A stretch of 64,000 bases of DNA from an uncultured bacterium. Its GTDB lineage: Bacteria > CAYJRR01. Shown piece after piece: positions 18,481-64,000 of the stretch; the first letter of the stretch is position 1; each line of letters opens with the position of its first letter. Made by a program: the position numbers and the translations under genes. The stretch lies in contig CAYJRR010000003.1 in NCBI GenBank assembly GCA_964372275.1, positions 12,638 through 76,637 of the forward strand, in the 5' to 3' direction. The notes under the pieces were generated by a model, which was not told the origin of the DNA, made no database searches, and saw only the letters and a list, made by a program, of their open reading frames with translations.

Positions 18481-18511
18481 CGGTGGCTCCTCGTTTTTCG
18501 GCGCGTGAGGG

Positions 18512-18739: not shown

Positions 18740-18749
18740 GTTCGGCCCC

Positions 18750-18812
18750 CCAGGAATAACTATAATTAAGTATCATTTTATATCATTGTCAATAAAGAAT
18801 ATCGATCTTGTA
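18750..18812. promoter_or_regulatory. AT-rich island (about 25% GC across 60 bp) containing TTGACA on the minus strand and TATAAT on the plus strand. Likely a divergent promoter region.
   Basis: ggaataacTATAATtaagtatcattttatatcattgtcaataaagaatatcgat. The reverse strand reads TTGACAatgatataaaatgatacTTAATT. Confidence 0.4.
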
Positions 18813-18864
18813 GGTCGCCTCCGCCAGTGGCGGCGGCGCTCGGAAAGGGGCAGGCTAGGAGGCC

Positions 18865-19885: not shown

Positions 19886-19898
19886 AGATAGATAGTAA

Positions 19899-19975
19899 CC
19901 GGATCGGATCGGTTCGGATTCGGATACCGATACCGATCGGATCCGAACACCGTCGGATACGGCTACGGCGATCCG
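19899..19975 (+). repeat. Hexamer-periodic GGATCG/TTCGGA/TACCGA array, site B
   Basis: GGATCG GATCGG TTCGGA TTCGGA TACCGA TACCGA TCGGAT CCGAAC ... in the gap between two minus-strand genes. Confidence 0.3.
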
Positions 19976-20856
19976 TTCCAGGGCAGGCGGCCGCCGAGGG
20001 TCGACCCCGCGGCGCCGAGTCGATACAAGCCACGCCGCGCGCGAAGGACACGCGCGGCGAAGGCCTTGGCCGGTCCCCGGCGGAATCGCCGCTCGCGAAG
20101 GTAGACCGCGAGCAGCCGCAGCCACGACCGCCGGTTCACCTCGGCCCAGGTCGTGAGCAGCAGCATCCGGAGGTCGAGCGCCTGCACGTGGCGACGAAGC
20201 GCCTCCGGCAACGGACGCAGGTCCTTGGCCCGATCGAGGTCGATCAGCCAGAGACGCCGCCGTCCGGCGGGTCCGGCGATCACCACGTTGCTGGCGGTGA
20301 AGTCGCCGTGGAAGAAGCCGCCGGCGTGGAGTTGGGCGGCGAGGATCGCCACCTCCCGTAGAAGCGGTCCCGCCGCCGATCCGGCCGCGCGCAGGCGCTT
20401 GAGCTCGTCGGTGAGCAGCGTTCCGTCGTCGAGAGGGCGGGCGAGAAGGAGCGTCTCCCGGTGAAGCAGGCCCGCGCGGCGGCGGAGGAGCAGGAGCGGC
20501 TCCGGGGTGGCGACCCCGGCGGCGGAAAGCAGGCGCCCCATCCTCCAGGAGGTCTCGCCCCGTGTCGGGAAGAGCAGGTCGAACGCCAGCGCGAGACGAT
20601 TCTTCGGGAGGTAGTACTTGGCGTGGACCGGACGCCCCAGCGCCTCCGCCGGCAGGCGCATCGCCGCGCGATGGGGCCGCCATCGATCGAGGGCCCCGCC
20701 GTCCGGCAGCGCCTGCGCGAGCGCGTCGCGGCCGCCATCGGGTCGAAGCCGAGGGAACCAGGCGACGGCCGCCCGCACGAACGGATCGTCGACCCCCGCC
20801 GCGATCACCGCCGAGACGTCACCGATCCGGGCGAACCGTTCTTCGAGGCTGGTCAA
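19963..20856 (-). CDS. Lipopolysaccharide (Kdo/WaaP-type) kinase-family protein
   Basis: FFHGDFTASNVVI ... LIDLDRAK resembles the Kdo-kinase/InaA catalytic loop. Confidence 0.55.
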   Translation of the reverse strand: MTSLEERFARIGDVSAVIAAGVDDPFVRAAVAWFPRLRPDGGRDALAQALPDGGALDRWRPHRAAMRLPAEALGRPVHAKYYLPKNRLALAFDLLFPTRGETSWRMGRLLSAAGVATPEPLLLLRRRAGLLHRETLLLARPLDDGTLLTDELKRLRAAGSAAGPLLREVAILAAQLHAGGFFHGDFTASNVVIAGPAGRRRLWLIDLDRAKDLRPLPEALRRHVQALDLRMLLLTTWAEVNRRSWLRLLAVYLRERRFRRGPAKAFAARVLRARRGLYRLGAAGSTLGGRLPWNGSP

Positions 20857-20919
20857 CGGCCCGATTTTGGCCTACGCGAGTCGCCGTGTCCGGGAAAAAT
20901 CGGTCGCCGTCGACGATCG
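20815..20919 (+). repeat. Direct repeat copy 1 of about 105 bp (pairs with 22962..23065)
   Basis: GTCACCGATCCGGGCGAACCGTTCTTCGAGGCTGGTCAACGGCCCGATTTTGGCCTACGCGAGTCGCCGTGTCCGGGAAAAATCGGTCGCCGTCGACGATCG is about 90% identical to the second copy. Confidence 0.6.
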
Positions 20920-23003: not shown

Positions 23004-23065
23004 CGGGCCGATTTTGGCCTACACGAGTCGTCGTGTCCGGGAAAAATCCGATGCTGTCGATGACC
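22962..23065 (+). repeat. Direct repeat copy 2 of about 105 bp
   Basis: See copy 1. This copy spans the start codon of the membrane-protein gene on the minus strand and the start of yicC on the plus strand. Confidence 0.6.
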
Positions 23066-42450: not shown

Positions 42451-43173
42451 ATGACCTCCTTCGTCGTGTTCGCCAAGGAACCGATCCCCGGACAGGTGAA
42501 GACCCGGCTCACGCCACCGCTTCCACCGGCGGTCGCGGCCGCGCTCTACGGCGCGTTCGTGGAGGACGTCGCCGCCGCGGTGGTCTCCGCGGCGCGGGAG
42601 GGCGATCGCCGCGTGCTCGCCGCGCCGGACGGCCCGGGTCCGGTTCTCCAGGCGATCGCCGGGCGACATGGCTTCGAGGCGGCGGCCCAGGTCGGAGCCG
42701 ATCTCGGAGCGCGCATGTCGAATGCGCTCCGCGCGGAGCTTCGACGCGGATCGGATCGGGTGGTGCTGGTCGGGAGCGACAGCCCGTCGATCCTGCCGGC
42801 GATGCTGCGCCAGGCGGTTGCGGCCCTGGACGACGGCGTCGACGCGGTCCTCGGACCGGCCGGTGACGGCGGGTACTGGCTCGTCGGTTGCGCCCGCTCG
42901 GTGCCCGATCTCTTCCAGGGGATCCCGTGGAGCACCCGGGACGTCCTCGCGACCACCCTCGATCGGGCGAAGGAGCGGGGAATCTCGATTTCGCTGTTGC
43001 CGTTCTGGTACGACGTCGACGACGTCGCCGACCTCCGCATGCTGCACGCGCACCTCGAATGGTCGTCGCAGGCCGGGCGATCGACGGCGCCCTGCACGAC
43101 GGCCGCCCTCGCCGAATTCCGCCGTGCAAATTCGGCGTTTTTCCTTGCCTCTCGCGGGGAGAGCACGCGATAA
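42451..43173 (+). CDS. DUF2064 / TIGR04282-family nucleotidyltransferase-fold 'glycosyltransferase'
   Basis: N-terminus MTSFVVFAKEPIPGQVKTRLTPPL is characteristic. An alternative GTG at 42424 overlaps the upstream stop. Confidence 0.55.
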   Translation: MTSFVVFAKEPIPGQVKTRLTPPLPPAVAAALYGAFVEDVAAAVVSAAREGDRRVLAAPDGPGPVLQAIAGRHGFEAAAQVGADLGARMSNALRAELRRGSDRVVLVGSDSPSILPAMLRQAVAALDDGVDAVLGPAGDGGYWLVGCARSVPDLFQGIPWSTRDVLATTLDRAKERGISISLLPFWYDVDDVADLRMLHAHLEWSSQAGRSTAPCTTAALAEFRRANSAFFLASRGESTR

Positions 43174-43684: not shown

Positions 43685-44968
43685 ATGCTGGAGCTGCTTC
43701 TCCACGTCTTCCTGGTACTGGTCGGCGCCGCCCTCGGCGGGCTGGGCAGCTACTTCCTCGCGCGCCACGGCTGGTGGGTTCCGGCCTCGCCGGACCGCGA
43801 TCCGTACTTGAGCGCGCTGACCGCGCTGCTCGACGAGAAGCCGGAGAAGGCGGCCGACATCCTGGTGATGACGGCGCGGCTGAACACCGGCGATCCGGGT
43901 CTCTACCAGGCGCTGGCGGGGCTGCTCCGCCGGATGGGGGAGTTCGGCCGCGCCACGCGCCTCGACCGGATGGTCGCGGTCCGCGAGGACCTGCGGACGG
44001 CGCAGCGCGCCGAGGTTCTCTACCACCTGGCGCTCGACTATCGAGGAGCCGGGCGGCTCCGGCAGGCGCTGGAGAACCTGGAAGAGGCGTTCCGGTTGAA
44101 TCCGCGCGAGGCGCGGACGGGGGCGCTGCTGGTGGAGCTCTACCAGCAGGCCGGGGACGAAGAGCGCGCCTACGAGGTGCTGCTCAAGGTCGGCGCCAAG
44201 GACGACGCGGCGGTGGGCCTGAGGCTGGCGGAGCTGCAGGTCGAGATCGGGCGGCGCCGGATGGCCGCCGACGACCTGAAAGGGGCGCGCAAGCACTTCC
44301 GCCGCGCCGTCGAACATTCACCCAAGGGGTACGCCGCGCGCCTGCACCTCGGGGACGCCTACCTCCGGAGCGGCGAGCACGACAAGGCGCTGGCCGCGTG
44401 GGTGGAGATCCTCGAAGACCGGCCGGAGCTGTTCGGCGCGCTCTATCCGCGGTTCGAGGACGCCTTCTTTTCCAAAGGGGAGTTCGACGAGCTGGGGGGG
44501 TTCATCCGCGACTACCTCTCCGCCTACCGCGATTCGCCGCGGGCGATGCTGATCCTTGCCCGCCACCTGGCGAAGAAGCGCCGCATCGACGAGGCGATCC
44601 GCGAGCTCAAGTCGGCGTTGGCGATCGATCCGGGTTTCGTCGAGGCGCACCGCGAGCTCGGACTGCAGCTCCTCGATCGCGGCACCACCGACGAGATCGC
44701 GGACGCCTACCGGGAGTTCCTGGACCATCTGCCGTCGCTCGTTCCCGCCTACAAGTGCCGGCGCTGCCAGAGCCCGGCCGAGTCGTTCTTCTGGCGCTGC
44801 CCCTCCTGCGCGGCGTTCGAGACGGCGACGCCGACCCGCGCGACCGAGCGCGCGGTGCCGGCGCCGGAACCGGCGCGGCCGGTCGGGTTCCCGGCGAGGC
44901 CGCTGGAGGTCGTGGCGAGCGCGGATGGAGGGCGGGTCCGGAAGGGCGCCGCCAAAAAGCCGGCGTGA
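43685..44968 (+). CDS. lapB: LapB/YciM-like TPR protein with C-terminal rubredoxin-type zinc finger
   Basis: N-terminal TM segment, several TPR repeats, and C-terminal CRRCQS...CPSC. Confidence 0.7.
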   Translation: MLELLLHVFLVLVGAALGGLGSYFLARHGWWVPASPDRDPYLSALTALLDEKPEKAADILVMTARLNTGDPGLYQALAGLLRRMGEFGRATRLDRMVAVREDLRTAQRAEVLYHLALDYRGAGRLRQALENLEEAFRLNPREARTGALLVELYQQAGDEERAYEVLLKVGAKDDAAVGLRLAELQVEIGRRRMAADDLKGARKHFRRAVEHSPKGYAARLHLGDAYLRSGEHDKALAAWVEILEDRPELFGALYPRFEDAFFSKGEFDELGGFIRDYLSAYRDSPRAMLILARHLAKKRRIDEAIRELKSALAIDPGFVEAHRELGLQLLDRGTTDEIADAYREFLDHLPSLVPAYKCRRCQSPAESFFWRCPSCAAFETATPTRATERAVPAPEPARPVGFPARPLEVVASADGGRVRKGAAKKPA

Positions 44969-44987
44969 CGCGCAGCAATCAGAAGGC

Positions 44988-45080
44988 GGAAAATGGAAAA
45001 TTCAAAATGGAAAACCGGCAAGCCGGTCAATGTTTCTGATTGGCCGGTTAACCGGTTTTCCATTTTGAAGTTTCCATTTT
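44988..45080. repeat. MITE/REP-like palindromic element A, built from inverted AAAATGG heptad arrays around a CCGG-containing core
   Basis: GGAAAATGGAAAATTCAAAATGGAAAACCGGcaagCCGGTCAATGtttctgATTGGCCGGttaaCCGGTTTTCCATTTTGAAGTTTCCATTTTC. About 45% GC in a genome of about 72% GC. A homologous copy sits at 61141..61243. Confidence 0.55.
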
Positions 45081-45087
45081 CGGTCGC

Positions 45088-46566
45088 GTGAACGGCCGCC
45101 GGCGATTGAGACGCCGCATCCAAACGTGTTCTGTCGTCTCCCCCGCCCGCGCCGTCGCGCTCGACGTTCTCGACGCCGTGCGCCGTGGGGAGCCCGCCGA
45201 CAACGCCTTCGATCGCGCATGCGCCTCGCGTCCCTCGCTCGCCGCGGCCGACCGCGGCCTCGCGATGGAGATCGCCTACGGCGTCCTCCGCCGCTGGCGG
45301 CGCCTCGACGGCGCGCTCGGGGAATACGCGCGGCAGGGCCTGCCGAAGGAGGCCGGGTTGCTCGACCTGCTGCGCGTCGGCGCCTACCAGCTCCTCTTCC
45401 TCGACCGCGTGCCGGCGCACGCGGCGGTGTCGACGGCGGTCGACGCGGCGCGCGAGCGAGCTCCGCACGCGGCGACCTTCGTGAACGCCGTCTTGCGGCG
45501 TGTGGCGGCGGAGGCGCCACGACTTCGCGCGGCGGTGCCGCCGCCGGAGGACGCGCCGGTGGAACGCCTCGCGGCGTGGCACTCGGTCCCCGACTGGCTG
45601 GCCGAACGGCTCGCGCCGCTGGCGAGCTCCGCGGCAGGTCTGGGCTCGTTGCTCGAGGCGCTCACGCGCCCGGCGCCGCTGTGTCTCCGCGCCACCCCAC
45701 ACGCGGGCGGACGCGACCGGTTGCTCGAGGCGCTCGCGCGGGAGGGAGCTCCGGCGCACGCCGCGGTCCATGCGCCGGACGCGCTGATCGTCGAACGACG
45801 TTCCGTCGCCGCGGGCGGCGCCGCCGGTTCGGAGGTGGCGGACGTGCGCGGGCTGCCGGGATTCGAAGAGGGTTGGTTCACGGTGCAGGACGAGGCGGCG
45901 CAGCTCATCGTCGAGCTGCTGGAGGTTCGGTCCGGCGTCACGATGCTCGACCTCTGCGCGGCGCCGGGCGGGAAGGCGATCCACGCCGCGCATCGCGGGG
46001 CCCGCGTCGTCGCCGTCGACGCGGACGCCGCTCGCCTTCGGCTCGTCGACGAGGCGTCGCGCCGCCTGCGGGCGCCGGTCGAGACGCTCGCCGCGACGGC
46101 CGGCGCCGCCGGCGTCGCGCCGCTCGCCGGGCGCCTCTTCGACCGCGTGCTGGTCGACGCGCCGTGCTCCGCGACGGGGATCCTCCGGCGCAAGCCCGAC
46201 GTGGCCTGGAGGCGGCGACCGGACGACCTCGCGGAGCTTCGCCGGCGCCAGTCGGAGATCCTCGAAGGGGGGGCGAGCCACGTCGCGCCCGGCGGGCGTC
46301 TCGTCTACGCCGTCTGCTCGCTCCTGCCGGAGGAGGGGGAGGCGGTCGCCGACGCCTTCGACGCGCTCCACGCCGCCGGCCATGCCTCGCGCGGAGTGGA
46401 TCGCGGCGCCGTTGGCTTCCGGCGCGTCGACCTGCGCGGTGGGCCTGCGTCGATCGCGCCGTTCGTCACCGCGCGCGGAGACTTCCGCGCCCGGCCGGAC
46501 CTTCATCGGACAGACGGATTCTTCGCGGCGACGTGGATCCGACTTGGAGACGGCCCGCTCTCGTGA
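45088..46566 (+). CDS. rsmB: 16S rRNA (cytosine967-C5)-methyltransferase
   Basis: NusB-like N-terminal domain. SAM motif DLCAAPGGK and catalytic DAPCSATG. The exact start is uncertain. Confidence 0.75.
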   Translation: MNGRRRLRRRIQTCSVVSPARAVALDVLDAVRRGEPADNAFDRACASRPSLAAADRGLAMEIAYGVLRRWRRLDGALGEYARQGLPKEAGLLDLLRVGAYQLLFLDRVPAHAAVSTAVDAARERAPHAATFVNAVLRRVAAEAPRLRAAVPPPEDAPVERLAAWHSVPDWLAERLAPLASSAAGLGSLLEALTRPAPLCLRATPHAGGRDRLLEALAREGAPAHAAVHAPDALIVERRSVAAGGAAGSEVADVRGLPGFEEGWFTVQDEAAQLIVELLEVRSGVTMLDLCAAPGGKAIHAAHRGARVVAVDADAARLRLVDEASRRLRAPVETLAATAGAAGVAPLAGRLFDRVLVDAPCSATGILRRKPDVAWRRRPDDLAELRRRQSEILEGGASHVAPGGRLVYAVCSLLPEEGEAVADAFDALHAAGHASRGVDRGAVGFRRVDLRGGPASIAPFVTARGDFRARPDLHRTDGFFAATWIRLGDGPLS

Positions 46567-46580
46567 GAGCATTTTTTTCG
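46554..46580 (+). terminator. Possible weak intrinsic terminator at the rsmB stop
   Basis: CTCTC-gtg-AGAG short hairpin followed by a T7 run. Confidence 0.3.
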
Positions 46581-46638
46581 TCACGGTCGGGTGGCCGTGC
46601 GAGACAACGTTCGACGGGGAGGGATCGTGGAATACGAG

Positions 46639-46986
46639 ATGAGCAGCACCGGCAATCCGATGATCGCGCTGTTGGCGATTCCGGTGGGGTTGGCGGTCTA
46701 CATCTTCTTTTCCTACTGCGCCAAGTTGATCTGCGAGAAGTCGGGGAAGCAGCCGGGGGTCCTGATCTGGATCCCGATCGTGCAGCTGATCCCGCTGATG
46801 GAAGTGGCGGGGATGGCGACCTGGATGATCGTGCTGGCGCTGATCCCGCTCGCCAACATCGTCTTCATCGTCCTGTTGGGCCTCGGACTGTGCAAGGCGC
46901 GGAAGAAGAACCCTGCGCTGGTGGTGCTGCTCTTCCTCCCCTGCCTGAACTTCGTCTTCCTGCCCTACCTGGCCTTCTCGGAATAG
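46639..46986 (+). CDS. Small polytopic membrane protein (about 115 aa), hypothetical
   Basis: Three or four hydrophobic helices (IALLAIPVGLAVYIFF, IWIPIVQLIPLM, LVVLLFLPCLNFVFLPYL). Start at ATG 46639 within the 46591 ORF. Confidence 0.5.
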   Translation: MSSTGNPMIALLAIPVGLAVYIFFSYCAKLICEKSGKQPGVLIWIPIVQLIPLMEVAGMATWMIVLALIPLANIVFIVLLGLGLCKARKKNPALVVLLFLPCLNFVFLPYLAFSE

Positions 46987-47012
46987 CGCCGGCGGACCGC
47001 TCGCGAGCGGCC

Positions 47013-49425
<2,413 letters not shown>

Positions 49426-49426
49426 C

Positions 49427-50986
49427 GTGGACAAGATCCTCGTTCTCGATTTCGGGTCGCAGTACACGCAGCTGATCGCGCGTCGCGTCCGCGAACAGAA
49501 GGTCTACTGCGAGATCCACCCCTGCACGATGCCGCTCACGCGCGTGCGCGGCTTCGGCGCCGCGGGGATCGTGCTGTCGGGGGGGCCGAACTCGGTCTAC
49601 GAGGAGGGGGCGCCGACCGTCGCCAAAGAGCTGTTCGCGCTCGGCGTGCCGATCCTCGGGATCTGCTACGGCGAGCAGCTCACCGCCCATCTCTTGGGGG
49701 GCCGGGTGGAGGCCGGAACGCGCCGCGAATACGGGCGCGCGCCGCTCACCGTCGATCGCGCGAGCGAGCTGTTCGCCGGGTTCGGGGCGGGGGAGGAGAT
49801 CCAGGTCTGGATGAGCCACGGCGACGTGGTGCGGGAGGTGCCCGAAGGCTTCGTGACGATCGCCTCCAACCACAGCACCCCGTTCGCCGCCGTCGAGGAC
49901 CGCGCGCGACGGATCTGGGGGATCCAGTTCCATCCGGAGGTGGCGCACACGCCCCGCGGGACCGAGATCCTGCGGAACTTCGTCTTCGGTATCTGCGGCG
50001 CCCGGGGCCAGTGGACGATGCGGTCGTTCGTGGAGAGCAAGACGGCGGAGATCCGGGAGACGGTCGGCGACGACCGGGTCCTGCTGGGCCTGTCCGGGGG
50101 GGTCGACTCGGCGGTGGCGGCGGTCCTGATCCACAAGGCGATCGGAGACCGGCTCCAGTGCGTTTTCGTCGACAACGGCCTACTCCGCAAGGACGAGGGC
50201 CGGAAGGTGGAGCAGGTCTTCCGGGGCCACTTCAAGATCCCGCTCCGGACGGTCGACGCCTCGGAGCGGTTCCTGAAGAAACTTGCGGGGGTGGTCGATC
50301 CGGAGGCGAAGCGGAAGACGATCGGCGAGCTGTTCGTCCGGGTGTTCGAGGACGAGGCCCGGACGCTCGGCGCCGGAGGGGCGACCGAGGCCGGACCGTC
50401 CTGGTTGGCGCAGGGGACGCTCTATCCGGACGTCATCGAGAGCGTCTCGTTCAAGGGACCGTCGGTCACGATCAAGAGCCACCACAACGTCGGCGGTCTC
50501 CCCGAGCGGATGGAGATGAAGGTCCTGGAGCCGCTTCGCGAGCTGTTCAAGGACGAGGTGCGCGCGCTCGGCGCCGAGCTGGGGATGCCGGCCGAGGTGC
50601 TCCAGCGGCAGCCGTTCCCGGGGCCGGGGCTCGCGGTGCGGATCCTGGGGGAGGTGACGCGCGAGCGGTGCGAGCTGTTGCGCGCCGCCGACGAGATCGT
50701 CGTCACCGAGATCAAGCGGGCCGGGCTCTACGCGAAGATCTGGCAGAGCTTCGCCGTGCTCCTGCCGGTGCGCACCGTCGGGGTGATGGGGGACGCGCGC
50801 ACCTACCAGGAGGTGATTGCCGTCCGCGCCGTCCACTCCACCGACGGCATGACCGCCGACTGGGTGCCGCTCCCCTACGACGTCCTCGCCACGATCTCCA
50901 ACCGGATCGTCAACGAGGTCCGCGGCATCAACCGCGTCGTCTACGACATCTCCAGCAAGCCCCCCTCGACGATCGAGTGGGAGTAG
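49427..50986 (+). CDS. guaA: GMP synthase (glutamine-hydrolysing)
   Basis: GATase-1 domain (ILGICYGEQ) and the ATP-PPase motif [11 protein letters not shown] start 1 nt after the guaB stop. Confidence 0.85.
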
Positions 50987-51012
50987 CCGCGGCGGTGCCC
51001 GAGGTCGCTCAC

Positions 51013-51166
51013 AATCCTTCTCCTGGTCCTCCTTCTCAACGCTACTCCTTCTCTCCGGGGGTTGCCCGTTCGGCGTAGCGGAAAGGAGTAGTAGAGGAGG
51101 AGGAGAAGGACAGAGAGAAGGAAAGGGACGAAAGAAGACCAAGAGGGAAGAGGGCGGGCGGCCTGT
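51013..51166. repeat. Strand-asymmetric polypyrimidine then polypurine mirror/inverted tract
   Basis: tccttctcctggtcctccttctc...ctactccttctctcc followed by ggaaaggagtagtagaggaggaggagaaggacagagagaaggaaagggacgaaagaagaccaagagggaagaggg. The two arms are roughly reverse-complementary. Confidence 0.4.
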
Positions 51167-51338
51167 GTGCGGGCCATCACCTGCGGCGAGAGGTGGCGGC
51201 TTTGCTCCTCGGTTGGAGGGTAGGGACTCCGAGCGGTCGCCCGGAGGAGTCGTGATCGTACGTACCCGGACTCGCGCATCGCGGCGGATTGTCGTCCCCG
51301 GGAAAGCGCCGGCATCGGGCTTGCTCGTAGGTGTGGGC

Positions 51339-52133
51339 ATGAAAGCCGTCGCCGTCGCGTCGATCCTCGGCAGCATGACGATCCTTTCGCCCGTCGAGCT
51401 CGGGGCGAGGGAGCGGGTTGGCCACCGCCCGGACGCGCGCCTCGAAGGGGTGGAGGCGCTCGACCGGCGGATCCTCGCCGACGGAGGCGCGGCGCGGAAC
51501 CGGCTCCTGACGCTCACTCGCACCGCCGCCTATCGGCGTTTCGTCGCGCGAAGCAAGGGACGGGCGGTTCGGATTCGCGTGGCGGAGCCGGTGAACGGAG
51601 GCGACCGCGATCTCCACGTCATCGAGGCGGCCTCCTCCGGTGGCGATCGGCTGGTGTTGATCGCCCAGGCGACCGCCGAGCCCGCCGGCGGGTCTGGACG
51701 GGGAGCGGCGGCACTCGCGCTGCCCCTGATCGCCTACTACCGTTGCTCCGACGGGGCCGAGTTCCTTTCGCTGCGCGACGGCCGGTCGCCGGTCCACGGT
51801 TCCCGGCTCTCGGCGTGGCTCGACGCGAGGCTCCAGGACGGTGTGCTCGTGGTGGCGGCGTATTCGGACGACGGATCGCTGCGTCGCGTGGAGCGTGTCG
51901 TCGCGTTCGACGCGGCCGGAGAGGTGGGGCGACCGGTCGGCCGTCTCGACGCGGCGATCGGCGGTCCGATGGAGTCGAATCTGGAGTTCGAGACGGATGG
52001 GAGCGCGCTGCTCGCCCTGCTGCGCCGCGACCGGCTGCTGGATCCGCCCGGTTCGGGCGTCTCGGTGGCGTCGCTGGAAGCGCGCCTCGCGACGGGACGC
52101 CGCGCCTCCGGGCCGTTCGCCTTGTCCCGGTAG
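51339..52133 (+). CDS. Secreted hypothetical protein
   Basis: Signal peptide MKAVAVASILGSMTILSP. High GC3. No recognisable domain. Confidence 0.45.
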   Translation: MKAVAVASILGSMTILSPVELGARERVGHRPDARLEGVEALDRRILADGGAARNRLLTLTRTAAYRRFVARSKGRAVRIRVAEPVNGGDRDLHVIEAASSGGDRLVLIAQATAEPAGGSGRGAAALALPLIAYYRCSDGAEFLSLRDGRSPVHGSRLSAWLDARLQDGVLVVAAYSDDGSLRRVERVVAFDAAGEVGRPVGRLDAAIGGPMESNLEFETDGSALLALLRRDRLLDPPGSGVSVASLEARLATGRRASGPFALSR

Positions 52134-52275
52134 CCGCGGCTCCGCTGTCGATCCATGCCGCGAGGATCGGGCACGGACGTCCGGCGTGGATTTGGGCCTC
52201 GCGCGGGGTGGCCGGCAGATCCCTTCCCACCGCGTCGGGGCGTGTGCCCTCACGCATGGTAGACTCGCGCACCCG

Positions 52276-55869
<3,594 letters not shown>

Positions 55870-55873
55870 CGCC

Positions 55874-56500
55874 ATGCCCACCTGGCTCCCGCTGGCGGCG
55901 TTCCTGGGCTCGATGGGACTCGCCGTCGTCTGGCGGGTGCTCTACCAGCGCGCGCGGTACGGCCACTTCGGCGTGATCCTCTTCCGCGGCGGACCGGCGC
56001 AGACCGCGCGCGACCTTTCGCTCGTGCTGCTGGCGGCGGGATACGTCGGCGAGGCGGCGATCCACGCCGTCCGACCGGGCCTGTTCGACCCGTTGACGGT
56101 CCCGCTGCCGATCGGCGATCACGCGCGGTGGATCCTGGGACTCGTCGTGGTGGCGGTCTCCACCGCGCTCCTCCTCGTTTCGCAGCTTCAGCTCGGGGCA
56201 TCCTGGCGGATCGGAATCGAAGAGGGGGCGCGCCCCGGTCTGGTCACCGGCGGCTTCTACCGGTGGGTGCGAAACCCGATCTTCACCGCGATGCTGGGGA
56301 CGATGATCGGATACGCGATCCTCCTTCCGACCTGGATCTCGCTGGCGATCGTTGCCGTCTCATGGATCCTCGTCCGGGCGCAGACGCTCGGTGAGGAGGC
56401 CTACCTGCTCCGCACCTACGGCGACGAGTACCGGATCTACGCGGCGCGCGTCGGCCGCTTCGTCCCCGGGATCGGGCGCCTGGCAAAGCCGGTTCCTTGA
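55874..56500 (+). CDS. Isoprenylcysteine carboxyl-methyltransferase / phospholipid methyltransferase-family membrane protein
   Basis: VTGGFYRWVRNPIF matches the ICMT/PEMT signature. 4-5 TM segments. Confidence 0.6.
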   Translation: MPTWLPLAAFLGSMGLAVVWRVLYQRARYGHFGVILFRGGPAQTARDLSLVLLAAGYVGEAAIHAVRPGLFDPLTVPLPIGDHARWILGLVVVAVSTALLLVSQLQLGASWRIGIEEGARPGLVTGGFYRWVRNPIFTAMLGTMIGYAILLPTWISLAIVAVSWILVRAQTLGEEAYLLRTYGDEYRIYAARVGRFVPGIGRLAKPVP

Positions 56501-56529
56501 CTTGGGTGGCGGCCGGTCGCTAGCGTGGC

Positions 56530-57795
56530 GTGGTGCTCGGGCGAGTGACGAAGATCCGCAGGCGGATCGCGGGAACGCTGCTCGTCGTGGCGGGGCTCGT
56601 AGGGGCGGCGCCGCTCGCCGCCGACGCGGCGCCGCCGCCGGCCCGCACCCTCCGGGAGCTCGAGGCGGTCGGGAGCTCGAAGGCGGGGGACGAGAAGAGC
56701 GCCGAGATCGATGCCATGCGGAAGGCCGTGCTGGCCATCGCGCGGGAGCTGCTGGGCCCGCCACCGGCGGGTGGCGATCCGGCGGCGGCACAGGAGACCG
56801 AGGCCAAGCTCGAGGCGAGCCTGCTGCGCAAGGCGCGTCGGTTCTGTCCCGAGATCCGCGTGCTCGACCGGACCGAAGCGGGCACGACCGTGATCCTCAA
56901 GGTGCGGGTGAAGGTGGCGATCGATGCCGTCCGCGCCGAGCTGGTGGCGGCCGGTCTCCTGGTCGCGGAGGGGGCGCACGCGACGACCCGCGTGCTGGTG
57001 CTGCCCGCGGGCGGAAAGGGGGGGCCGGCACCCTGGTGGGTGGCGGGCGGCGAGGCGGGCGAGCCCAAGCCGATCACCGCCGTGCTCGTCCAGGCGCTGC
57101 GCGATCGCGGATTCGACGTCGTGGAGCCGCGGGCCGCGCCGGGTCCCGCGGCGAAGGCGGCGCCGCCGACGGCCGACCTCTCCGACGCCGCGGTCCTGGC
57201 GCTCGGCGCGGCGCACGACGCCGACGTCGTCGTTCGCGTGGCATGGGAGACGACGACCGGCAGCCGTCCCGTCGAGCCGCTCCTTTTCGGTCTCGCGCGC
57301 GCGAAGCTTGCGCCGGTCGAGGCGATCGCGGTGAAGGACGGACGGCGGCTGACGTCGGTGGAAGGGATTGGAACGGCGGGGGAGACGCTCGATCCGCGCG
57401 TGAAGGTCGGGCTTCCGGCCGAGACCGCGACGCGGCTGCGCGAATCGGCCCTTCGCTCGGCCGCGGAGGAGGCGGCGGCGAAGCTCCTGCTCGCACTCGG
57501 CGAACCGGTCTCGGCGGAAGGGGCCCCTTCGACGATCCGCCTCACCGTCACCGGCCTCGATACCTACGTCGCCTTCAACCGGTTCGAGCGCGTGCTCGCA
57601 ACCCAAGCCAAGACGGTGCGCGCCGTGACCCTCAAGAGCCTGGAGCGCGGGTCGGCGACCTTCGACCTGAAGCTCGAACGCGGAGCCGATCTGGCGGCGT
57701 TCACCGACGAGATCGCCCGGCAAGAGTTCGCCGAATTTTCGGTGAAGTTGGCGGAAAAAAGACCCGGTTCGGTGGTACTTCAGGTGGTGCGATAG
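56530..57795 (+). CDS. Secreted hypothetical protein (421 aa)
   Basis: Signal peptide IAGTLLVVAGLVGAAPLAADA. Ala-rich with coding-like GC3. Confidence 0.5.
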   Translation: MVLGRVTKIRRRIAGTLLVVAGLVGAAPLAADAAPPPARTLRELEAVGSSKAGDEKSAEIDAMRKAVLAIARELLGPPPAGGDPAAAQETEAKLEASLLRKARRFCPEIRVLDRTEAGTTVILKVRVKVAIDAVRAELVAAGLLVAEGAHATTRVLVLPAGGKGGPAPWWVAGGEAGEPKPITAVLVQALRDRGFDVVEPRAAPGPAAKAAPPTADLSDAAVLALGAAHDADVVVRVAWETTTGSRPVEPLLFGLARAKLAPVEAIAVKDGRRLTSVEGIGTAGETLDPRVKVGLPAETATRLRESALRSAAEEAAAKLLLALGEPVSAEGAPSTIRLTVTGLDTYVAFNRFERVLATQAKTVRAVTLKSLERGSATFDLKLERGADLAAFTDEIARQEFAEFSVKLAEKRPGSVVLQVVR

Positions 57796-57843
57796 GGGGC
57801 ATGGAGGAGATCCCCCGGGGGAGCGAACGCGCGGAGTAGATCG

Positions 57844-59016
57844 ATGGACGAATACGCCCCCCTTCCGCCCCCCACCGCCGTCCGGCGGCTCCCGCTCGAG
57901 CCGCGGGAGTGGTGGGTCCGGCCGCTCTCCTACGCCTTGCTGGCGGTGATCGTCGGATTCGTGGTGTGGCTGCTCCGTCCGGTGCTGACGCCGATCGCCG
58001 CCGCCATGGCCGCGGCCTACGCCGTCTCGCCGCTGATCGACGCGCTCGAGCGCCGGCGCGTGCCGCGGGTGGTGACGATCCTCGCCCTGCTGGCCGGCTT
58101 CCTCGCGCTCCTCGCCGGGCTGGTCGCGGTGGTGGTGCCGTTGGTCCACGCCGAAGTGGCATCGCTGGCGGACAACCTCCCCGGCTATTGGGAGCGCGCC
58201 AACGCCCTGTTCCTCGAGCGTGTCCGCCCCTTCGTCGAGGAGCGATTCGGCACGACGATCCCCACCACGCCGCGCGACGTCTGGAACGAGGCGGCGGCAC
58301 GCCTGTCGGGCGAGGCCGCCCCCGACGTCGCCGGGACGGTGCTTCGTTTCCTGCGCGGGACGGTGTCGAACGTCTTCGGCCTGCTCGGGTTGGTCCTGGG
58401 GGCGATCCTCTTCCCGGTCTTCTTTTTCTACGTTGCCAAGGACTTCCCGCGGATCGTGCGGGCGGCGGTAGAGGCGATCCCGCCGCGCAACCGCGACGAG
58501 GTGCTGGCGCGCGTGCGCGAGGTCGACGCCGTGATCGCGAGCTTCGTGCGCGGACAGATCACCGTCTGCCTGCTGCTGGCGATGAGCTACAGCGTCGGGC
58601 TGTCGATCATCGGGATCGACCTGGCGGTGGTGATCGGCGTCGTCTCCGGACTCGCCTTCGTCATCCCCTACGTCGGCACGATCGTCGGGATCGTCGCCGC
58701 GTCGGCGATGTCGATCGCCGAGTTCGGTCTCGTCGACCGGGAGTTCGCGCTCTGGGTCGAGCCCCATCTGCTCGCCGTCCTGGCGATGTTCGCCGGCGTG
58801 CAGCTGATCGAGAGCAACGTGGTGACCCCCAAGATCGTGGGGGACCGGGTCGGACTCCACCCGGTGGTGATGATCACCGCAGTGATCGTCGGCGGCCAGC
58901 TCTTCGGCTTCCTCGGCGTGCTGCTGGCGATCCCCGCCACCGCCGCCGGCGCCGTCTTCTTCCGCGCCGGCCTCGAGCGCTACCGCACCTCCGAGTTCTA
59001 CCGCGCGATGCGGTGA
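57844..59016 (+). CDS. AI-2E family transporter (PerM/YdiK/TqsA-like)
   Basis: Eight-TM topology. Conserved region VIPYVGTIVGIVAASAM ... PKIVGDRVGLHPVVMI. Confidence 0.65.
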   Translation: MDEYAPLPPPTAVRRLPLEPREWWVRPLSYALLAVIVGFVVWLLRPVLTPIAAAMAAAYAVSPLIDALERRRVPRVVTILALLAGFLALLAGLVAVVVPLVHAEVASLADNLPGYWERANALFLERVRPFVEERFGTTIPTTPRDVWNEAAARLSGEAAPDVAGTVLRFLRGTVSNVFGLLGLVLGAILFPVFFFYVAKDFPRIVRAAVEAIPPRNRDEVLARVREVDAVIASFVRGQITVCLLLAMSYSVGLSIIGIDLAVVIGVVSGLAFVIPYVGTIVGIVAASAMSIAEFGLVDREFALWVEPHLLAVLAMFAGVQLIESNVVTPKIVGDRVGLHPVVMITAVIVGGQLFGFLGVLLAIPATAAGAVFFRAGLERYRTSEFYRAMR

Positions 59017-59022
59017 TCCGGC

Positions 59023-61044
59023 CTACCGCGGCGCGGCAAGCCAGTTCTCGACCCGCGCTGCAACCGCCTCGGGCGTGAACCCGAAGTGCTTCGCGAGATC
59101 GGGGTAGGGGGCCGACTCGCCGAAGTCGGAGAGGGCGATGACCAGACCGTCCTTGCCGGCATAGCGCCACCAGCTCTGGGCGCTCGCCGCCTCGACACAT
59201 GCGACCGGTAGGCCGGGCGGCAGGACGGCCTCCCGATAGGACGCGGGCTGCTCGTCGAAGAGTTGCGTGCACGGCATCGAGACGACGCGGATCCGCCGTC
59301 CCTTCGCGGCGAGGAGCGACGCGGCCTGGAGGGCGACATGGAGCTCGGAGCCGGTGGCGACGATCGCCGCCTCCGGGGCCGACGCCGGTCCGGGGACGCC
59401 GCCCGTTTCCGACAGCACGTAGCCCCCCTTCCAGACGTCACGGCGATCGAAGCCGGCCGGGCGCGGGATCGGCGGCACCTTCTGCCGTGTCAGTGCGAGG
59501 AGGAACGGCCCCTTGGGGGCGGAGATCGCGTAGGCCCAGGACATCGCCGTCTCCAGGCCGTCGGCCGGACGGAACAGCTTCAACCGCGGGATCGCCCGCA
59601 GCGCCGCCAGGTGTTCGATCGGCTGGTGGGTCGGACCGTCCTCTCCCAGGAAGATCGAATCGTGGGTGAAGACGAAGATCGACGGGGTCTGCATCAGCGA
59701 GGCGAGCCGGATCGCCGGGCGGCAGTAGTCGCTGAAGATGAGGAAGGTGGCGGCGTATCCGCGAAACGCTCCGTGCAGCGTCATACCGTTGGCGATCGCC
59801 CCCATCGCGTGCTCGCGAACGCCGTAGTGAAAGTTCCGGCCGCCGAACGCGCCGGCCTGGATCGAATCCGAGCCTTCGATCTTGGAGTTGTTCGAGGGCG
59901 TCAGGTCGGCCGAGCCCCCCGCCAGACCGGGGAGGAGCTGCGCCGCTTTCTGCAACGCGGCGCCGGAGTGCTGCCGCGTCGCCGCCTCCTTGTCGCCGAC
60001 CGCGGCGGCGATCTGCGCGTCGAACTCCGGCGGGAGCGTCGGATCGACATACGACGCGAACGCATTCGCCGACGCCGGATCGGCGGCGGCCCACGCTTCG
60101 AATCCGCGCGTCCACGCCTCGCGCCCGTTGCGCTTCCCGGCGGCGATCTCGGCGAACCGCGCGCGCGCGTCGTCGGGGACGAGGAACATCGGCTCGGCCG
60201 GCCAGCCGAGCGCCTCCTTGGTCGCCCGGTGCTCGTCCCCGCCCAAGGGTTCGCCGTGAACCTTGGCGGTGCCGGCCTTCCTGGGGGCGCCGCGCCCGAT
60301 GACAGTCCGCGCCAGGATCAGCGTCGGCTTGCCGGTCCGCCGCGCGGCCGCCGCCAGCGCCCGCTCGATCTCACCGATGTCGTGTCCGTCGATCCGGTCG
60401 GTGTGCCAGCCATAGGCGTCGAACCGCTTCGCCACGTCTTCGCTGAACGCGAGACCCGTCTCCCCGTCGATCGTGATCCGGTTGTCGTCGTAGAGGTAGC
60501 AGAGGTTGTCGAGCTTCCAGTGGCCGGCGAGCGACGCCGCCTCCGAGGCGACCCCCTCCATCAGGTCGCCGTCGGAGACGATCCCCCAGACGCGGTGGCT
60601 CACCGGACGAAATCGTTCGTTGCCGGGGAATCGCGCGGCGAGCATCTTGGCGGCGACCGCCATCCCGACGCCGTGCGCGAACCCCTGGCCGAGGGGACCG
60701 GTCGTCACCTCGATCCCCGGCGTGAGCCCCCACTCCGGGTGTCCCGGGGTCTTCGACCCGAGCTGCCGGAAACGCTGAAGCTCGGCGAGCGGGAGGTCGT
60801 AGCCGAACAGGTGCAGCAGACCGTAGATCAACATCGACGCATGACCGTTCGAGAGGACGAACCGGTCGCGATCGATCCAGGCCGGATCGCGGGGATCGAA
60901 CCGGAGGAACTTCGACCACAGGACGTAGGCCATCTCGGCGCAGCCGAGCGGAGCCCCCGGATGCCCCGACTTCGCCTTCTCGACGCCGTCGATGGCGAGC
61001 ATCTTGAGGGTGAGGATCGCGCGTTCGTCGGGGGAGGTGGTCAT
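59023..61044 (-). CDS. tkt: Transketolase
   Basis: TPP-binding [17 protein letters not shown] and the SDGDLMEG motif. Start taken at MTTSPDER. An upstream ATG at 61077 would add 11 residues. Confidence 0.85.
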
Positions 61045-61140
61045 GGAGGGGGTGGGGGAGGGTGCGGGGATCGACATGGGCGGGGGACTATCGCGGATCG
61101 GGGGGCTCGGCGCAAGACGGACCGCGCGGAGGATCGAATT

Positions 61141-61243
61141 GAAAATGGAAAATGGAAAATGGAAAACCGGTCAATGGTGAAGCCAAACGGCGCGGGCCTC
61201 ATTTTTCATTGGCCGGTTTTCCATTTTCCATTCTCCATTTTCA
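61141..61243. repeat. MITE/REP-like palindromic element B (AAAATGG x3 inverted arrays)
   Basis: GAAAATGGAAAATGGAAAATGGAAAACCGGTCAATGgtgaagccaaacggcgcgggcctcatttttCATTGGCCGGTTTTCCATTTTCCATTCTCCATTTTCAG. The right end abuts the stop codon of the glycosyltransferase gene. Confidence 0.55.
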
Positions 61244-62494
61244 GTTTTTCGCGGTCAGGATCCTCACCGCGTCGCCAACCGCATCCCTCCGCCGAAGCTT
61301 CTCTCCGAGCGCCCGCGCCGCCGCAACTCTCCCCGGCGAGAGCGCCTCCTCGAACGCCGCGGCGAGCCGTTCCCAGGTCAAACTCGTGCGCGGGAGCGGG
61401 CGCGCCGCGATCCCGGCGCGATCGGCGAGATGAGCCCACTGGAACTGGTCGAAGGCGTGCGGCACGACCACCTGGGGGATCCCGGCGCGGGCGACGGAGG
61501 CGGTGGTGCCGGCGCCGCCGTGGTGCGCCGCGGCGGCGAGGTGAGGGAACAGCGCGCGGTGGGAGATCGGGCCCACCGACAGCACGTCGTCCTCGGCTCC
61601 GTCCGGGCGTCGGGGCGCGCTGTGGCCGTCCGGGCCTCCGAGTCCCGCCCAGCCGGCGGAGATGACGACGCGCCGTCCGACGGCGCGCGCGGCGTCGATC
61701 ACGGCCCGCGTCGTCCGCGCCGGATCGGGGTCGGGCATGCTGCCGAAGCCGACGTAGACCGGCGGATCCCCGGCGTCGAGGAAGGTCCGCACCTCGCGAG
61801 GCAGCGGTCGATCGTCCTCCAGGTGCAGGCTTCCGACGGCGGGAAGGCGGAGCGGGACGTCGGCGGGCGGCGGCGCGACCTCGGGATCGGCGGCGACGAG
61901 CGTACGGTCGGTGGGAACGAAGTGCTCCTGGAGGTTCTCGACCTCCCCGAGACCGAGCTCGCGGCGCTTGGCGCGCAGCGGTGGCCCCAGCGCCGCTTCC
62001 GCCAGCCGCAGGAAGATCGTCCAGCAGATGCGGTTGACGAACGGCGGCGCGCCGGCGAACGGCAGGAAGCCGGGGGCGTGGTGGTCGGAACGGAGCAGCT
62101 GCGGGGTGTAGGCGACGAAGCGATAGGGGACGCCCGCCGCCTCGGCCGCGGTCGGCGCGGCGATCTGCGCTCCGCCGCCGACGACCCGGTCGGCGTCGCC
62201 GGCCAGCGCCAGGAGCTCGTCGACGTAGGCGGGCAGCTCCTCGCGGCCGACCTTCATCAAGGCCTGGGCGCCGGTGAGCGGGTTCATCTCGAGCGTTTCG
62301 CGCTGGGACTGCATCCAGGTCTGGATGTCGAGTCCGACCGGGACGAAAGGGATCCCGAAGGCCCGTGCTTCGCCGGCGAAACAAGCACTTGCGCCCAGCA
62401 CGGGGCGGTGGCCGGCCCGTTTCAGGCCGACCGCCAGCGCCAACAGCGGCTGGAAGTCCCCTCGGGAGCCGGCCGGGGTCAGCAGGACGCGCAC
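61241..62494 (-). CDS. GT1-family UDP-glycosyltransferase (MGT / sterol-glucosyltransferase-like)
   Basis: C-terminal signature HHGGAGTT and the ...PQVVVPHAFDQ donor-binding motif. Confidence 0.6.
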   Translation of the reverse strand: MRVLLTPAGSRGDFQPLLALAVGLKRAGHRPVLGASACFAGEARAFGIPFVPVGLDIQTWMQSQRETLEMNPLTGAQALMKVGREELPAYVDELLALAGDADRVVGGGAQIAAPTAAEAAGVPYRFVAYTPQLLRSDHHAPGFLPFAGAPPFVNRICWTIFLRLAEAALGPPLRAKRRELGLGEVENLQEHFVPTDRTLVAADPEVAPPPADVPLRLPAVGSLHLEDDRPLPREVRTFLDAGDPPVYVGFGSMPDPDPARTTRAVIDAARAVGRRVVISAGWAGLGGPDGHSAPRRPDGAEDDVLSVGPISHRALFPHLAAAAHHGGAGTTASVARAGIPQVVVPHAFDQFQWAHLADRAGIAARPLPRTSLTWERLAAAFEEALSPGRVAAARALGEKLRRRDAVGDAVRILTAKN

Positions 62495-62555
62495 GAGCGT
62501 TGACGATCCTACGCCAAATTGCTAACGATACCGGCTCTTTTTGTCGACCCACGCC

Positions 62556-64000
62556 ATGCCATCGTCGATCCCGAACACCGACGCGACGGTCAAGGTCACG
62601 TTGCCGGACGGAACCGTCCGCGAGGTGCCGCGCGGAACGACCATCCTTCAGGTCGCGGAATCGATCGGCCCGCGCCTGGCCAAAGAGGCATTGGCCGGTC
62701 GGAGCGGAGATCGCTGGCTCGACTTGCGGTTGCCGCTCGACCACGACCTTCCGCTCCGGATCGTCACCACCCGGGATCCGGACGGCGTCGAAGTGATCCG
62801 CCACTCGGCGGAGCACATCATGGCCGACGCGGTGAAGCAGCTGTGGCCGGACGTGAAGATCGACGTCGGCCGCTCCGAGCACGCGGAGAAGTTCCAGTAC
62901 GACTTCGACATCGACCATCCGTTCACGCCGGAGGACCTGGCCAAGATCGAGTCGAAAATGGCCGAGATCATCGCGGCCGATACGCCGTTCACGCGGGAGG
63001 AGGTCGGCCGCGAGGAGGCGGCGCGCCTGTTCGAGCGGATGGGCGAGGACCTCAAGGTCAGCCGCCTGGCGGACATCCCCGCCGGCCAGCCGATCACGCT
63101 GTTCCGCCACGGCTCGTTCGTCGACCTGTGCCGGGGGCCGCACGTGCAGCGGACCGGCCAAGTGAAGGCCTACAAGCTGCTCGACGTGTCGGGCTCGTAT
63201 TGGCGCGGCGACGAACGCAACAAGATGCTGCAGCGGATCTACGGCACCGCCTTCGCCAAGAAGGAGGACCTCGCCGAATGGGAGCGCCTGCGCGAGGAGG
63301 CGGAGAGGCGCGATCACCGCCGACTCGGCAAGGATCTCGACCTCTTCTCCATCCAGGAGACGGTGGGGGGCGGGCTCGTGCTCTGGCACCCCAAGGGGGC
63401 GATGGTCCGCAAGTCGATGGAGGACTACTGGCGCGATCAGCACCTGCAACGCGGCTACGAGTTCGTCCACACGCCGCACGTCGGGCGCGCCAAGCTCTGG
63501 GAGACCTCGGGCCACCTCGGCTTCTACAAGGAGTCGATGTTCGCGTCGATGGAGATCGAAGGGGATCCCTACTACGCGAAGCCGATGAACTGCCCCTTCC
63601 ACATCATGATCTTCAAGAACCGGCGGCGGTCGTACCGCGAGCTGCCGGTCCGGTTCGCGGAGCTGGGCACCGTCTACCGCTACGAACGGTCGGGCGTGTT
63701 GCACGGGCTGATGCGCGTGCGCGGGTTCACCCAGGACGACTCGCACATCTTCTGCACCCCCGACCAGGTGGAGGGGGAGATCGCGGCGGTGGTGGAGTTC
63801 GGACTCCAGCTGCTGCGCACCTTCGGCTTCACCGAGTTCCAGGCCTACATCGCCACGCGTCCGGAGAAGGCGGTCGGCGAACCGGCGGCGTGGGACAAGG
63901 CGATCGCCGCGCTCAAGTCGGCGGCCGACCGGGTGAAGCTCCCCTACGAGATCGACGAGGGGGGCGGCGCCTTCTACGGGCCGAAGATCGACATCAAGAT
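62556..64000 (+). CDS. thrS: Threonyl-tRNA synthetase, 3'-truncated by the window edge
   Basis: TGS domain N-terminus, the second additional domain, then the class II core (FHIMIFKNRRRSYRELP, RGFTQDDSHIF). The frame is open to nt 64000. Confidence 0.85.
   Translation, partial: MPSSIPNTDATVKVTLPDGTVREVPRGTTILQVAESIGPRLAKEALAGRSGDRWLDLRLPLDHDLPLRIVTTRDPDGVEVIRHSAEHIMADAVKQLWPDVKIDVGRSEHAEKFQYDFDIDHPFTPEDLAKIESKMAEIIAADTPFTREEVGREEAARLFERMGEDLKVSRLADIPAGQPITLFRHGSFVDLCRGPHVQRTGQVKAYKLLDVSGSYWRGDERNKMLQRIYGTAFAKKEDLAEWERLREEAERRDHRRLGKDLDLFSIQETVGGGLVLWHPKGAMVRKSMEDYWRDQHLQRGYEFVHTPHVGRAKLWETSGHLGFYKESMFASMEIEGDPYYAKPMNCPFHIMIFKNRRRSYRELPVRFAELGTVYRYERSGVLHGLMRVRGFTQDDSHIFCTPDQVEGEIAAVVEFGLQLLRTFGFTEFQAYIATRPEKAVGEPAAWDKAIAALKSAADRVKLPYEIDEGGGAFYGPKIDIK

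Follow-up and report, generated by a model that had tools for sequence, protein, structure and literature searches.

Two copies of a palindromic repeat built from facing AAAATGG heptad arrays at tight gene junctions of a GC-rich uncultured bacterium

We identified two palindromic elements, A (44988..45082) and B (61137..61246), in a 64-kb stretch of chromosomal DNA from an uncultured bacterium (hereafter the window, meaning the entire 64,000 nucleotides analysed; whole-window GC ~70 %). Each is made of short arrays of AAAATGG heptads that face each other across a centre. By their sequences, A and B are homologous copies of one palindromic element. The reading that we favor, and to which we give about an even chance, is that they are copies of a dispersed foldback, REPIN or MITE-like repeat that were gained after stop codons, and that their transcript acts as a bidirectional terminator or a protective hairpin. 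What the present evidence shows is a further family of small palindromic repeats, this one from an uncultured bacterium.

Element A is 95 bp long with 41 % GC, and its full reading (44988-45082) is GGAAAATGGAAAATTCAAAATGGAAAACCGGCAAGCCGGTCAATG-TTTCTG-ATTGGCCGGTTAACCGGTTTTCCATTTTGAAGTTTCCATTTTC. Its left arm (44989..45031; all arms are given on the + strand) consists of GAAAATG GAAAATT CAAAATG GAAAACCGG CAAG CCGGTCAAT and is followed by a 7-nt loop, GTTTCTG (45032..45038), and by the right arm (45039..45081), ATTGGCCGG TTAA CCGGTTTTC CATTTTG AAGTTTC CATTTTC. Element B measures 110 bp with 42 % GC and reads AATTGAAAATGGAAAATGGAAAATGGAAAACCGGTCAATG-(30 nt)-CATTGGCCGGTTTTCCATTTTCCATTCTCCATTTTCAGTT (61137-61246). 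Its left arm, AATT GAAAATG GAAAATG GAAAATG GAAAACCGG TCAATG (61137..61176), and its right arm, CATTGG CCGGTTTTC CATTTTC CATTCTC CATTTTC AGTT (61207..61246), enclose a central segment of 30 nt (61177..61206) that has its own small GC hairpin and is unrelated to the loop of A. Every arm carries 3-4 heptads head-to-tail. An inverted-repeat search returned A and B as the longest two inverted repeats of the 64-kb window, with arms of 43 nt at 88 % complementarity for A and of 40 nt at 93 % for B. Together with direct reading of the sequence, this search confirmed at both sites the palindromes with inverted AAAATGG heptad arms that the initial annotation had described. Two of its details needed correction: the right core of A is GATTGGCCGG and not CATTGGCCGG; and B had been delimited as 61141..61243, whereas its true span is 61137-61246 with the stop codon of a glycosyltransferase gene included. 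Arm-internal hairpins (CCGGNNNNCCGG) are present in A and absent from B.

We then aligned the four arms by anchoring them on the inner CCGG. This alignment revealed a 30-nt stretch, (GAAAATG)x3 plus GAAAACCGG, that is common to all four arms, with 26 of its 30 positions identical. Two further positions separate A from B and match within each element (TGG in B, TTC in A), and the remaining two are single-arm mismatches. Because a change that distinguishes A from B appears in mirror image in the partner arm, pairing has been kept. Each arm of A additionally contains an extra CCGGNNNN block. The core is asymmetric in the same way in the two elements, with CCGGTCAAT on the left and the reverse complement CCGGCCAAT on the right, a T/C difference that leaves the + strand with a T.G pair and the - strand with a C.A mismatch. 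This common asymmetry argues that A and B come from one ancestral palindrome that was copied whole, and the earlier proposal of two copies of one element is upheld by the arms and the core asymmetry that they have in common. The centres of A and B are unrelated and their arms are conserved; with changes mirrored between conserved arms and a centre free to vary, this is the pattern that REPINs and foldback-type MITEs display.

By chance, the 15-mer AAAATGGAAAACCGG would be expected 0.02 times in the window, yet it is present four times, once in each arm; for the two-heptad motif GGAAAATGGAAAA, with as many as 2 mismatches allowed, the expected and observed numbers are 0.13 and 11, and all 11 matches fall within A or B. 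The two elements are among only four AT-rich islands of the window; their GC content (0.41 in A and 0.42 in B) contrasts with 0.69-0.76 in the 500-bp flanks (about 72 %), and the early remark that they lie well under the GC of the flanking DNA holds (41-42 % vs 69-76 %). An assembly artefact or a chance palindrome might be suspected in a metagenome-assembled contig, and we consider it extremely improbable here, given two internal copies with intact flanking genes, an occurrence far above chance and related elements in independent assemblies.

As RNA, either strand of A and of B folds into a single long hairpin, with energies of -65.4 (A) and -67.2 (B) kcal/mol for the + strand and of -55.6 (A) and -63.9 (B) kcal/mol for the - strand. 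These correspond to z values of about -9 to -11.5, and none of 200 shuffled sequences was equally stable. The hairpin of about 45 bp that had been anticipated is accordingly recovered from both strands as a near-perfect 40-45-bp duplex (-56 to -67 kcal/mol). Inside it, at 45015..45066 (+), A contains a smaller hairpin that is clamped by GC (CCGG..CCGG) and followed by the U-rich tail TTTTCCATTTT, with the mirror image on the - strand; the inner hairpin of A reaches -22.8 (+) and -16.1 (-), and those of A and B together range from -16 to -23 kcal/mol. The tail after the inner hairpin, TTTTCCATTTT or UUUUCCAUUUU, scores -4.43 on all four strands by a TransTermHP-type measure, which places it in the top 0.1 % of window positions, and a simple terminator scan picks out sub-hairpins on either strand of A as well. 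Each strand of A and B is therefore, by the formal definition, a predicted intrinsic terminator, and the combination of an A-rich 5' arm with a U-rich 3' arm on either strand points to a bidirectional design. For the idea that the elements are attenuators, the structural side is hence supported, as a GC-clamped hairpin and a U-rich tail with a score like that of the canonical terminators of the window are found on either strand of A and of B.

Three canonical intrinsic terminators in the window offer a local standard, with tail scores of -3.9 to -4.9. They lie after a tRNA (14070-14096), upstream of lapB (43110-43142) and across the rsmB stop (46557-46578), and each consists of a GC stem and T5-7 without heptads, so the organism also uses ordinary terminators. 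Among bidirectional Rho-independent terminators are kinds in which one conserved sequence is reused at many terminators; inverted DUS/USS pairs and the mycobacterial TRIT motif are examples. A and B resemble bidirectional terminators in the GC-rich stem, the 5' A-tract, the 3' U-tract and the location after stop codons, and differ from them in that regular heptad arrays make up the A and U tracts and the stem of the predicted terminator is ~45 bp. It is conceivable, though in our judgment improbable, that A and B are non-mobile bidirectional intrinsic terminators that evolved where they stand, with A/U tracts grown by heptad slippage and with gene conversion, or selection for one terminator design, keeping the two alike. 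Their metrics do equal those of the canonical terminators and both directly follow stop codons, but the canonical ones are plain GC stems with T5-7 tails and no heptads. The variation of heptad number between near-identical phage contigs would suit slippage; against this, the common 30-nt arm and the T/C asymmetry argue for copying of the whole unit, and the arms exceed 40 nt. A local origin also agrees with the lack of a target-site duplication and of a transposase among the ORFs scanned, and it is compatible with empty-site relatives that are as distant as 47-74 % protein identity. Two other observations count against it, namely that one copy sits inside an operon junction that overlaps in relatives, and that the same terminal motif is found in unrelated genomes and phages.

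Pfam assignments of the flanking genes agree with the location at gene boundaries that was first proposed, lapB and rsmB for A and a glycosyltransferase gene and tkt for B. At A, the stop codon of the LapB-like gene (TPR and Zn_ribbon_LapB domains; 43685..44968, +) lies 19 nt before the element, and the GTG start of rsmB (45088..46566, +) lies 5 nt past its end; a 492-aa RsmB product from the GTG at 45088 is on record for an NCBI contig. A Shine-Dalgarno-like GAAGG, read from the sequence at 44982..44986 (+), would be placed 8 nt from the rsmB GTG if A were removed or folded away. At B, the upstream gene encodes a GT28/EryCIII-like glycosyltransferase (61241..62494, -) and the downstream gene a transketolase (59023..61077, -; 684-aa product on record), whose ATG at 61077 lies 59 nt beyond the end of B. 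The TGA stop of the glycosyltransferase (61241..61243, -) falls inside the outermost degenerate heptad of B, and its last two codons (K, N), which are extra in comparison with the C-terminus of a relative, lie in the same outer heptad. Both junctions join co-directional genes and both elements come directly after a stop codon. With respect to their neighbouring genes, A and B point in opposite directions, so that only a transcript through A benefits from the conserved U.G pair. They share one orientation relative to the window + strand, whose GC skew is positive throughout; with n=2 this carries no weight.

The source lineage appears isolated when its proteins are compared: identity to the best relatives is 47-54 % for RsmB and 68-74 % for transketolase. 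The RsmB relatives keep the gene order DUF2064-lapA-lapB-rsmB-DUF5684, and in them lapB and rsmB overlap by 4 nt (L064 and L065) or leave a gap of 2 nt (L068) or 24 nt (L069), versus 119 nt in the window, 95 of which are element A. Similarly, the glycosyltransferase-to-tkt spacer is 46 nt in L089 (transketolase identity 68 %) versus 163 nt in the window. Both junctions are thus short and empty in relatives that share only 47-74 % protein identity. Across ~63 kb from seven relatives (67-72 % GC), AAAATGG or CCATTTT is found zero times, and a comparable AT-rich palindrome is likewise absent from these ~63 kb. Short, empty junctions in heptad-free relatives argue that A and B were gained within the lineage, into tight junctions, as far as relatives at the distance of 47-74 % protein identity allow this to be read. 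In another relative, L066 (9218-9831), the lapB-rsmB junction is 908 nt and two small genes are inserted, one of the 23S_rRNA_IVP family, which suggests that this junction has been a target of insertions more than once.

The dispersed-repeat reading would combine these features as follows. An arm would be designed as a short AAAATGG heptad array that ends in AAAACCGG, with two arms placed around a variable centre, and each copy would have been gained at the 3' end of a gene within a tight co-directional junction. A transcript from either strand would form the ~45-bp hairpin, with the inner GC-clamped stem and then UUUUCCAUUUU. The most likely effect would be partial termination together with shielding of the upstream mRNA 3' end, and rsmB would be partly uncoupled from lapB, and tkt from the glycosyltransferase gene. 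We counted in favor of this reading the gene ends that elements supply, both that of the glycosyltransferase at B and those at three related loci described below (L062, L080 and L082). We counted against a terminator role that a 45-bp stem goes far beyond the needs of termination and that a strong terminator between lapB and rsmB looks costly, the pair being translationally coupled in relatives; nor did a scan reveal a sigma-70-type promoter for rsmB. Against mobility we counted that two copies are visible in the 64-kb window, with no target-site duplication and no transposase match among the 37 ORFs scanned. From the sequence we infer that A and B may be mobile and that they may affect transcription.

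The 40-45-bp duplex would also be a substrate for RNase III and a barrier to 3' exonucleases. One may ask whether A and B are elements of RNA processing or stability only, that is, an RNase III site or an exonuclease barrier without termination that sets different mRNA levels for the flanking genes, like REP/BIME or the T7 intercistronic RNase III sites. The near-perfect duplex and the intercistronic place in operon-like gene pairs would fit, and related phage elements lie just upstream of scaffold or major-capsid genes. We hold this to be quite unlikely as the full account: it leaves the U-rich polarity of the 3' arm and the origin of the element unexplained, and by sequence alone it is inseparable from the terminator reading.

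We compared A and B with known classes of small repeats. Like REP/BIME and REPINs, they are intergenic non-coding palindromes of ~100 nt with two inverted conserved arms and a variable spacer, they are without a target-site duplication, and they occupy a kind of site that is frequent for these repeats, after stop codons between co-directional genes. REP/BIME and REPINs are known mRNA stabilisers, attenuators or terminators, and changes in their arms tend to be mirrored. Inverted units, a long hairpin, a variable spacer and the lack of a target-site duplication are all found in A and B. Unlike REP, A and B have arms of tandem heptads and no GTAG-type head or REP consensus, and unlike REP/BIME they are AT-rich in a GC-rich genome; the absence of the GTAG head agrees with the initial annotation, which had seen no match to the REP consensus. 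REPINs are mobilised by RAYT; we scanned 37 ORFs of the 64-kb window, and none matched a transposase or RAYT family; the families that were matched are those of an ordinary chromosome, among them guaB, guaA, dnaE, pyruvate kinase, Ser/Thr kinases and bactofilin.

With bacterial MITEs (Correia, RUP, ERIC and similar), A and B share the short length, terminal inverted repeats and the position at gene boundaries; such MITEs are dispersed and can supply stop codons and terminators. The terminal inverted repeats are evident in the 43- and 40-nt arms (88 % and 93 % complementary), and A and B consist almost entirely of them, which is a foldback architecture and sets them apart from MITEs. A further difference from MITEs is that neither a recognisable target-site duplication nor a parent IS with matching ends was found. 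No duplication or direct repeat is seen at the borders of A (CAGAAGGCG on one side, GGTCGC on the other) or of B (GGATCG and TTTCGCGG), and AATT beside some ends is ambiguous as a duplication because AATT is itself palindromic. A parent element was found neither among the 37 window ORFs nor among the neighbours of related loci. The label MITE-like is therefore apt for the inverted arms and fails for the target-site duplication and a transposase among the 37 ORFs. With neither of these, two visible copies and no match in 185,579 genomes, MITE describes a resemblance and not a demonstrated membership. An outward promoter, for rsmB or tkt, is unsupported, since a sigma-70-type promoter scan of 44001-64000 found none.

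Searches with A and B pointed to no known family, as the first reading had suspected: A and B have no Rfam match at threshold and match only generic miRNA-hairpin models, with 33-42 bits against thresholds of 67-184, and a single tRNA is all that reaches the Rfam gathering threshold in the window. BLAST of A and B against plasmids and phages gave no match, and a literature text search for the repeat sequences returned only eukaryotic primers and similar. Both arms within 20-50 nt of each other were found in none of 185,579 species-representative genomes. A genome scan based on RsmB yielded only distant relatives (at most 43 % identity), none with the 15-mer, and viral scans with the CCGG-bearing arm and with strict 18-mer arms gave 0 matches. 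To our knowledge, none of the DnaA boxes, parS/NBS, cre, CodY boxes, sigma-54 or sigma-H promoters fits the spacing or key bases of the motif.

Related heptad elements were nevertheless detected elsewhere with less demanding patterns, and we regard their link to A and B, both for phages and for unrelated metagenomes, as tentative. The three-heptad arm is present in two of 241 million metagenome records (L062 and L063), both of which also have the inverted partner array, between co-directional genes. In L062 (38-46 % GC), the element lies between an enoyl-CoA hydratase gene and ribH-nusB, and the upstream TAG stop is formed by a variant heptad, AAAATAG. In L063 (66 % GC), the neighbours are a DUF5658 gene and a HEAT-repeat gene, and the element stops 8 nt short of the ATG. 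Scans of viral contigs revealed short heptad arrays at gene boundaries in several phage or prophage contigs of 45-66 % GC. Single-arm searches found an inverted partner array at a co-directional gene boundary in L062, L063, L073, L079/L086 and L078/L080/L085. The pair in L073 surrounds an AT-rich centre of ~100 bp with two hairpins, between neck-like and scaffold genes. In L079 and L086, the element lies between the gene of a 163-aa protein and the major head protein gene, and the difference of one heptad between these two contigs indicates that array length changes by slippage. In L078/L080/L085, the element follows an amidase endolysin, and in L082 a solo heptad array lies at the TerL stop. 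No transposase family was matched among the neighbouring ORFs scanned in these related loci. The terminal motif AATTGAAAATGG is common to B and several related elements, and the 15-nt motif AATT(C/G)AAAATGGAAA turns up repeatedly in unrelated genomes. Some of the related loci have arms of poor complementarity and yet retain the 7-nt register, which keeps alive a reading of the heptads as sites of protein recognition.

Several of these contigs have features of their own. L073 (IMGVR_UViG_3300028048_000982) is a prophage-like head module of 66 % GC (a possible terminase, an SPP1-type portal and a scaffold) that adjoins a peptidase M29 gene, and it has three heptad-array sites in 7.9 kb (759-815, 4700-4870 and 7710-7772), the first of which (759-815) is a solo array of seven units. 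In L080 (1317-1868, -), the endolysin C-terminus (...LMENGKWRMDNVPCGI*) takes its last ~17 codons and its stop from the heptad array. L082 also has, at 745-790, a GC-rich hairpin (CATTGCGAGGCCAGTG..CACTGGCCGTGGCAATC) that resembles what we take to be a palindromic repeat common in gut Clostridia. Matches to (AAAATGG)n in giant viruses were set aside as plain one-orientation satellites: L070-L072 and L074-L077, giant-virus and other AT-rich viral contigs, have 4-14 units in one orientation without an inverted partner.

Streptococcus-like phage contigs of 31-35 % GC from human-associated samples (L090-L149) have, ahead of the scaffold gene, an intergenic region that is conserved and structured (for example, L145 8930-9060), composed of a terminator, two tandem hairpins AAAATGGAAAA-N10-TTTTCCATTTT 51 nt apart, and then CGTCCTAGACATGACGTTAAAAGGTC. 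The region has no Rfam match and no annotated counterpart in the phage collection. Its hairpins carry AATT(C/G)AAAATGGAAA, as do A and B. In the first hairpin, one member of the family has a compensatory AAAACGG/CCGTTTT pair and another has a U.G intermediate, which indicates that pairing is under selection in this family. The homology of these hairpins to A and B is uncertain, because the search pattern enforced the 11-mer. An excess of one arm polarity in the viral contigs (A-rich first in 60 loci, T-rich first in 21) was dropped as evidence, since it comes from this one family and the two orders are about equal elsewhere.

Tandem heptamers are described but unexplained as intergenic repeats in Beggiatoaceae, cyanobacteria, Bacteroidetes and xanthomonads, the cyanobacterial STRR being one such class. 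A and B share with them head-to-tail 7-nt units (2-6 per set in the known repeats) that lie in non-coding DNA close to start or stop codons, at junctions of co-directional ORFs, and these repeats are spread over distant phyla without a known mechanism of transfer. They differ in the sequence of the unit and in arrangement: the known repeats are nearly always direct arrays, in one orientation to the downstream gene and with tens to hundreds of sets in a genome, whereas A and B are facing arrays that form a hairpin. TAACTGA repeats, which have a patchy distribution across phyla, comprise 2-6 units and mostly lie just upstream of start codons without a Shine-Dalgarno sequence, and the Maribeggiatoa genome has one indirect repeat among 170 TAACTGA sets (PMC4679880). 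GGGNATC repeats occur mainly between aligned ORFs, at most 50 bp from starts or stops (PMC4692102).

By analogy with such systems, the heptads might be arrayed recognition sites for a protein, either a DNA-binding repressor, as omega is, or an RNA-binding factor that acts on (AAAAUGG)n or (CCAUUUU)n just upstream of starts; we think this unlikely. The initial annotation had named a nucleoid protein as a possible binder of such arrays, and the sequence evidence speaks neither for nor against it. Contiguous WATCACW heptads, direct and inverted, form the operators of the omega (RHH) repressor of inc18 plasmids. The likeness to these operators, which is one of analogy only, lies in contiguous 7-bp units without spacers, 3-10 per array, and in inverted arrangements; the heptad sequence is different, A and B are without an associated RHH gene or promoter, and they are situated at chromosomal housekeeping loci. 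A factor that binds RNA at repeats near start codons has been proposed for the intergenic TAACTGA heptamers, and the position of arrays near starts matches the pattern of those repeats (PMC4679880). Arrays end 5-8 nt from starts without an adjacent Shine-Dalgarno sequence in A and L063, and ~12 nt from a start in L083. The strict 7-bp register and the existence of solo arrays (L073 759-815 and L082) would suit protein recognition, as would the recurrence of AATT(C/G)AAAATGGAAA in unrelated genomes and the heptads of L063 and L086, which keep AAT.GA while the complementarity between arms decays. However, no candidate binding protein is encoded beside any copy, no common theme links the downstream genes (rsmB, tkt, ribH, a HEAT protein, and phage scaffold or capsid genes), and the mirrored differences between A and B together with the compensatory changes in phages point to pairing and not to readout by a protein.

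A broader proposal, speculative and rather doubtful in our estimate, is that heptad arrays with the outer motif AATT(C/G)AAAATGGAAA serve as recognition ends for a so far undescribed module, mobile or protein-recognised, that is common to phages and unrelated bacterial chromosomes (38-70 % GC). It might take the form of a phage-vectored 'portable terminator' or of an array site for a DNA- or RNA-binding protein that reads heptads. If true, it would supply the missing mechanism by which intergenic heptamer repeats have spread across phyla, and the tentative link to phages and metagenomes would be a rare clue to the origin and spread of these repeats. For the favored reading of A and B as dispersed repeats, mobile two-way terminators would allow the operon structure of a compact high-GC genome to be rewired in one step, freeing rsmB from the lapA-lapB operon and tkt from the upstream glycosyltransferase gene.

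Two other features of the window were recorded. A strongly AT-rich island (18723-18830; ...AATAACTATAATTAAGTATCATTTTATATCATTGTCAATAAAGAATATCGATC...) lies within a 1.6-kb stretch (18340-19963) in which a GC3-based gene call gives no convincing gene. A near-identical direct repeat of ~45 nt, AACGG(C/G)CCGATTTTGGCCTAC(G/A)CGAGTCG(C/T)CGTGTCCGGGAAAAATC, is present at 20855-20910 and 23000-23055; it flanks a 689-aa ORF (20934-23003, -) without a Pfam match, and its second copy (23000-23055) overlaps the start of a YicC-like gene.
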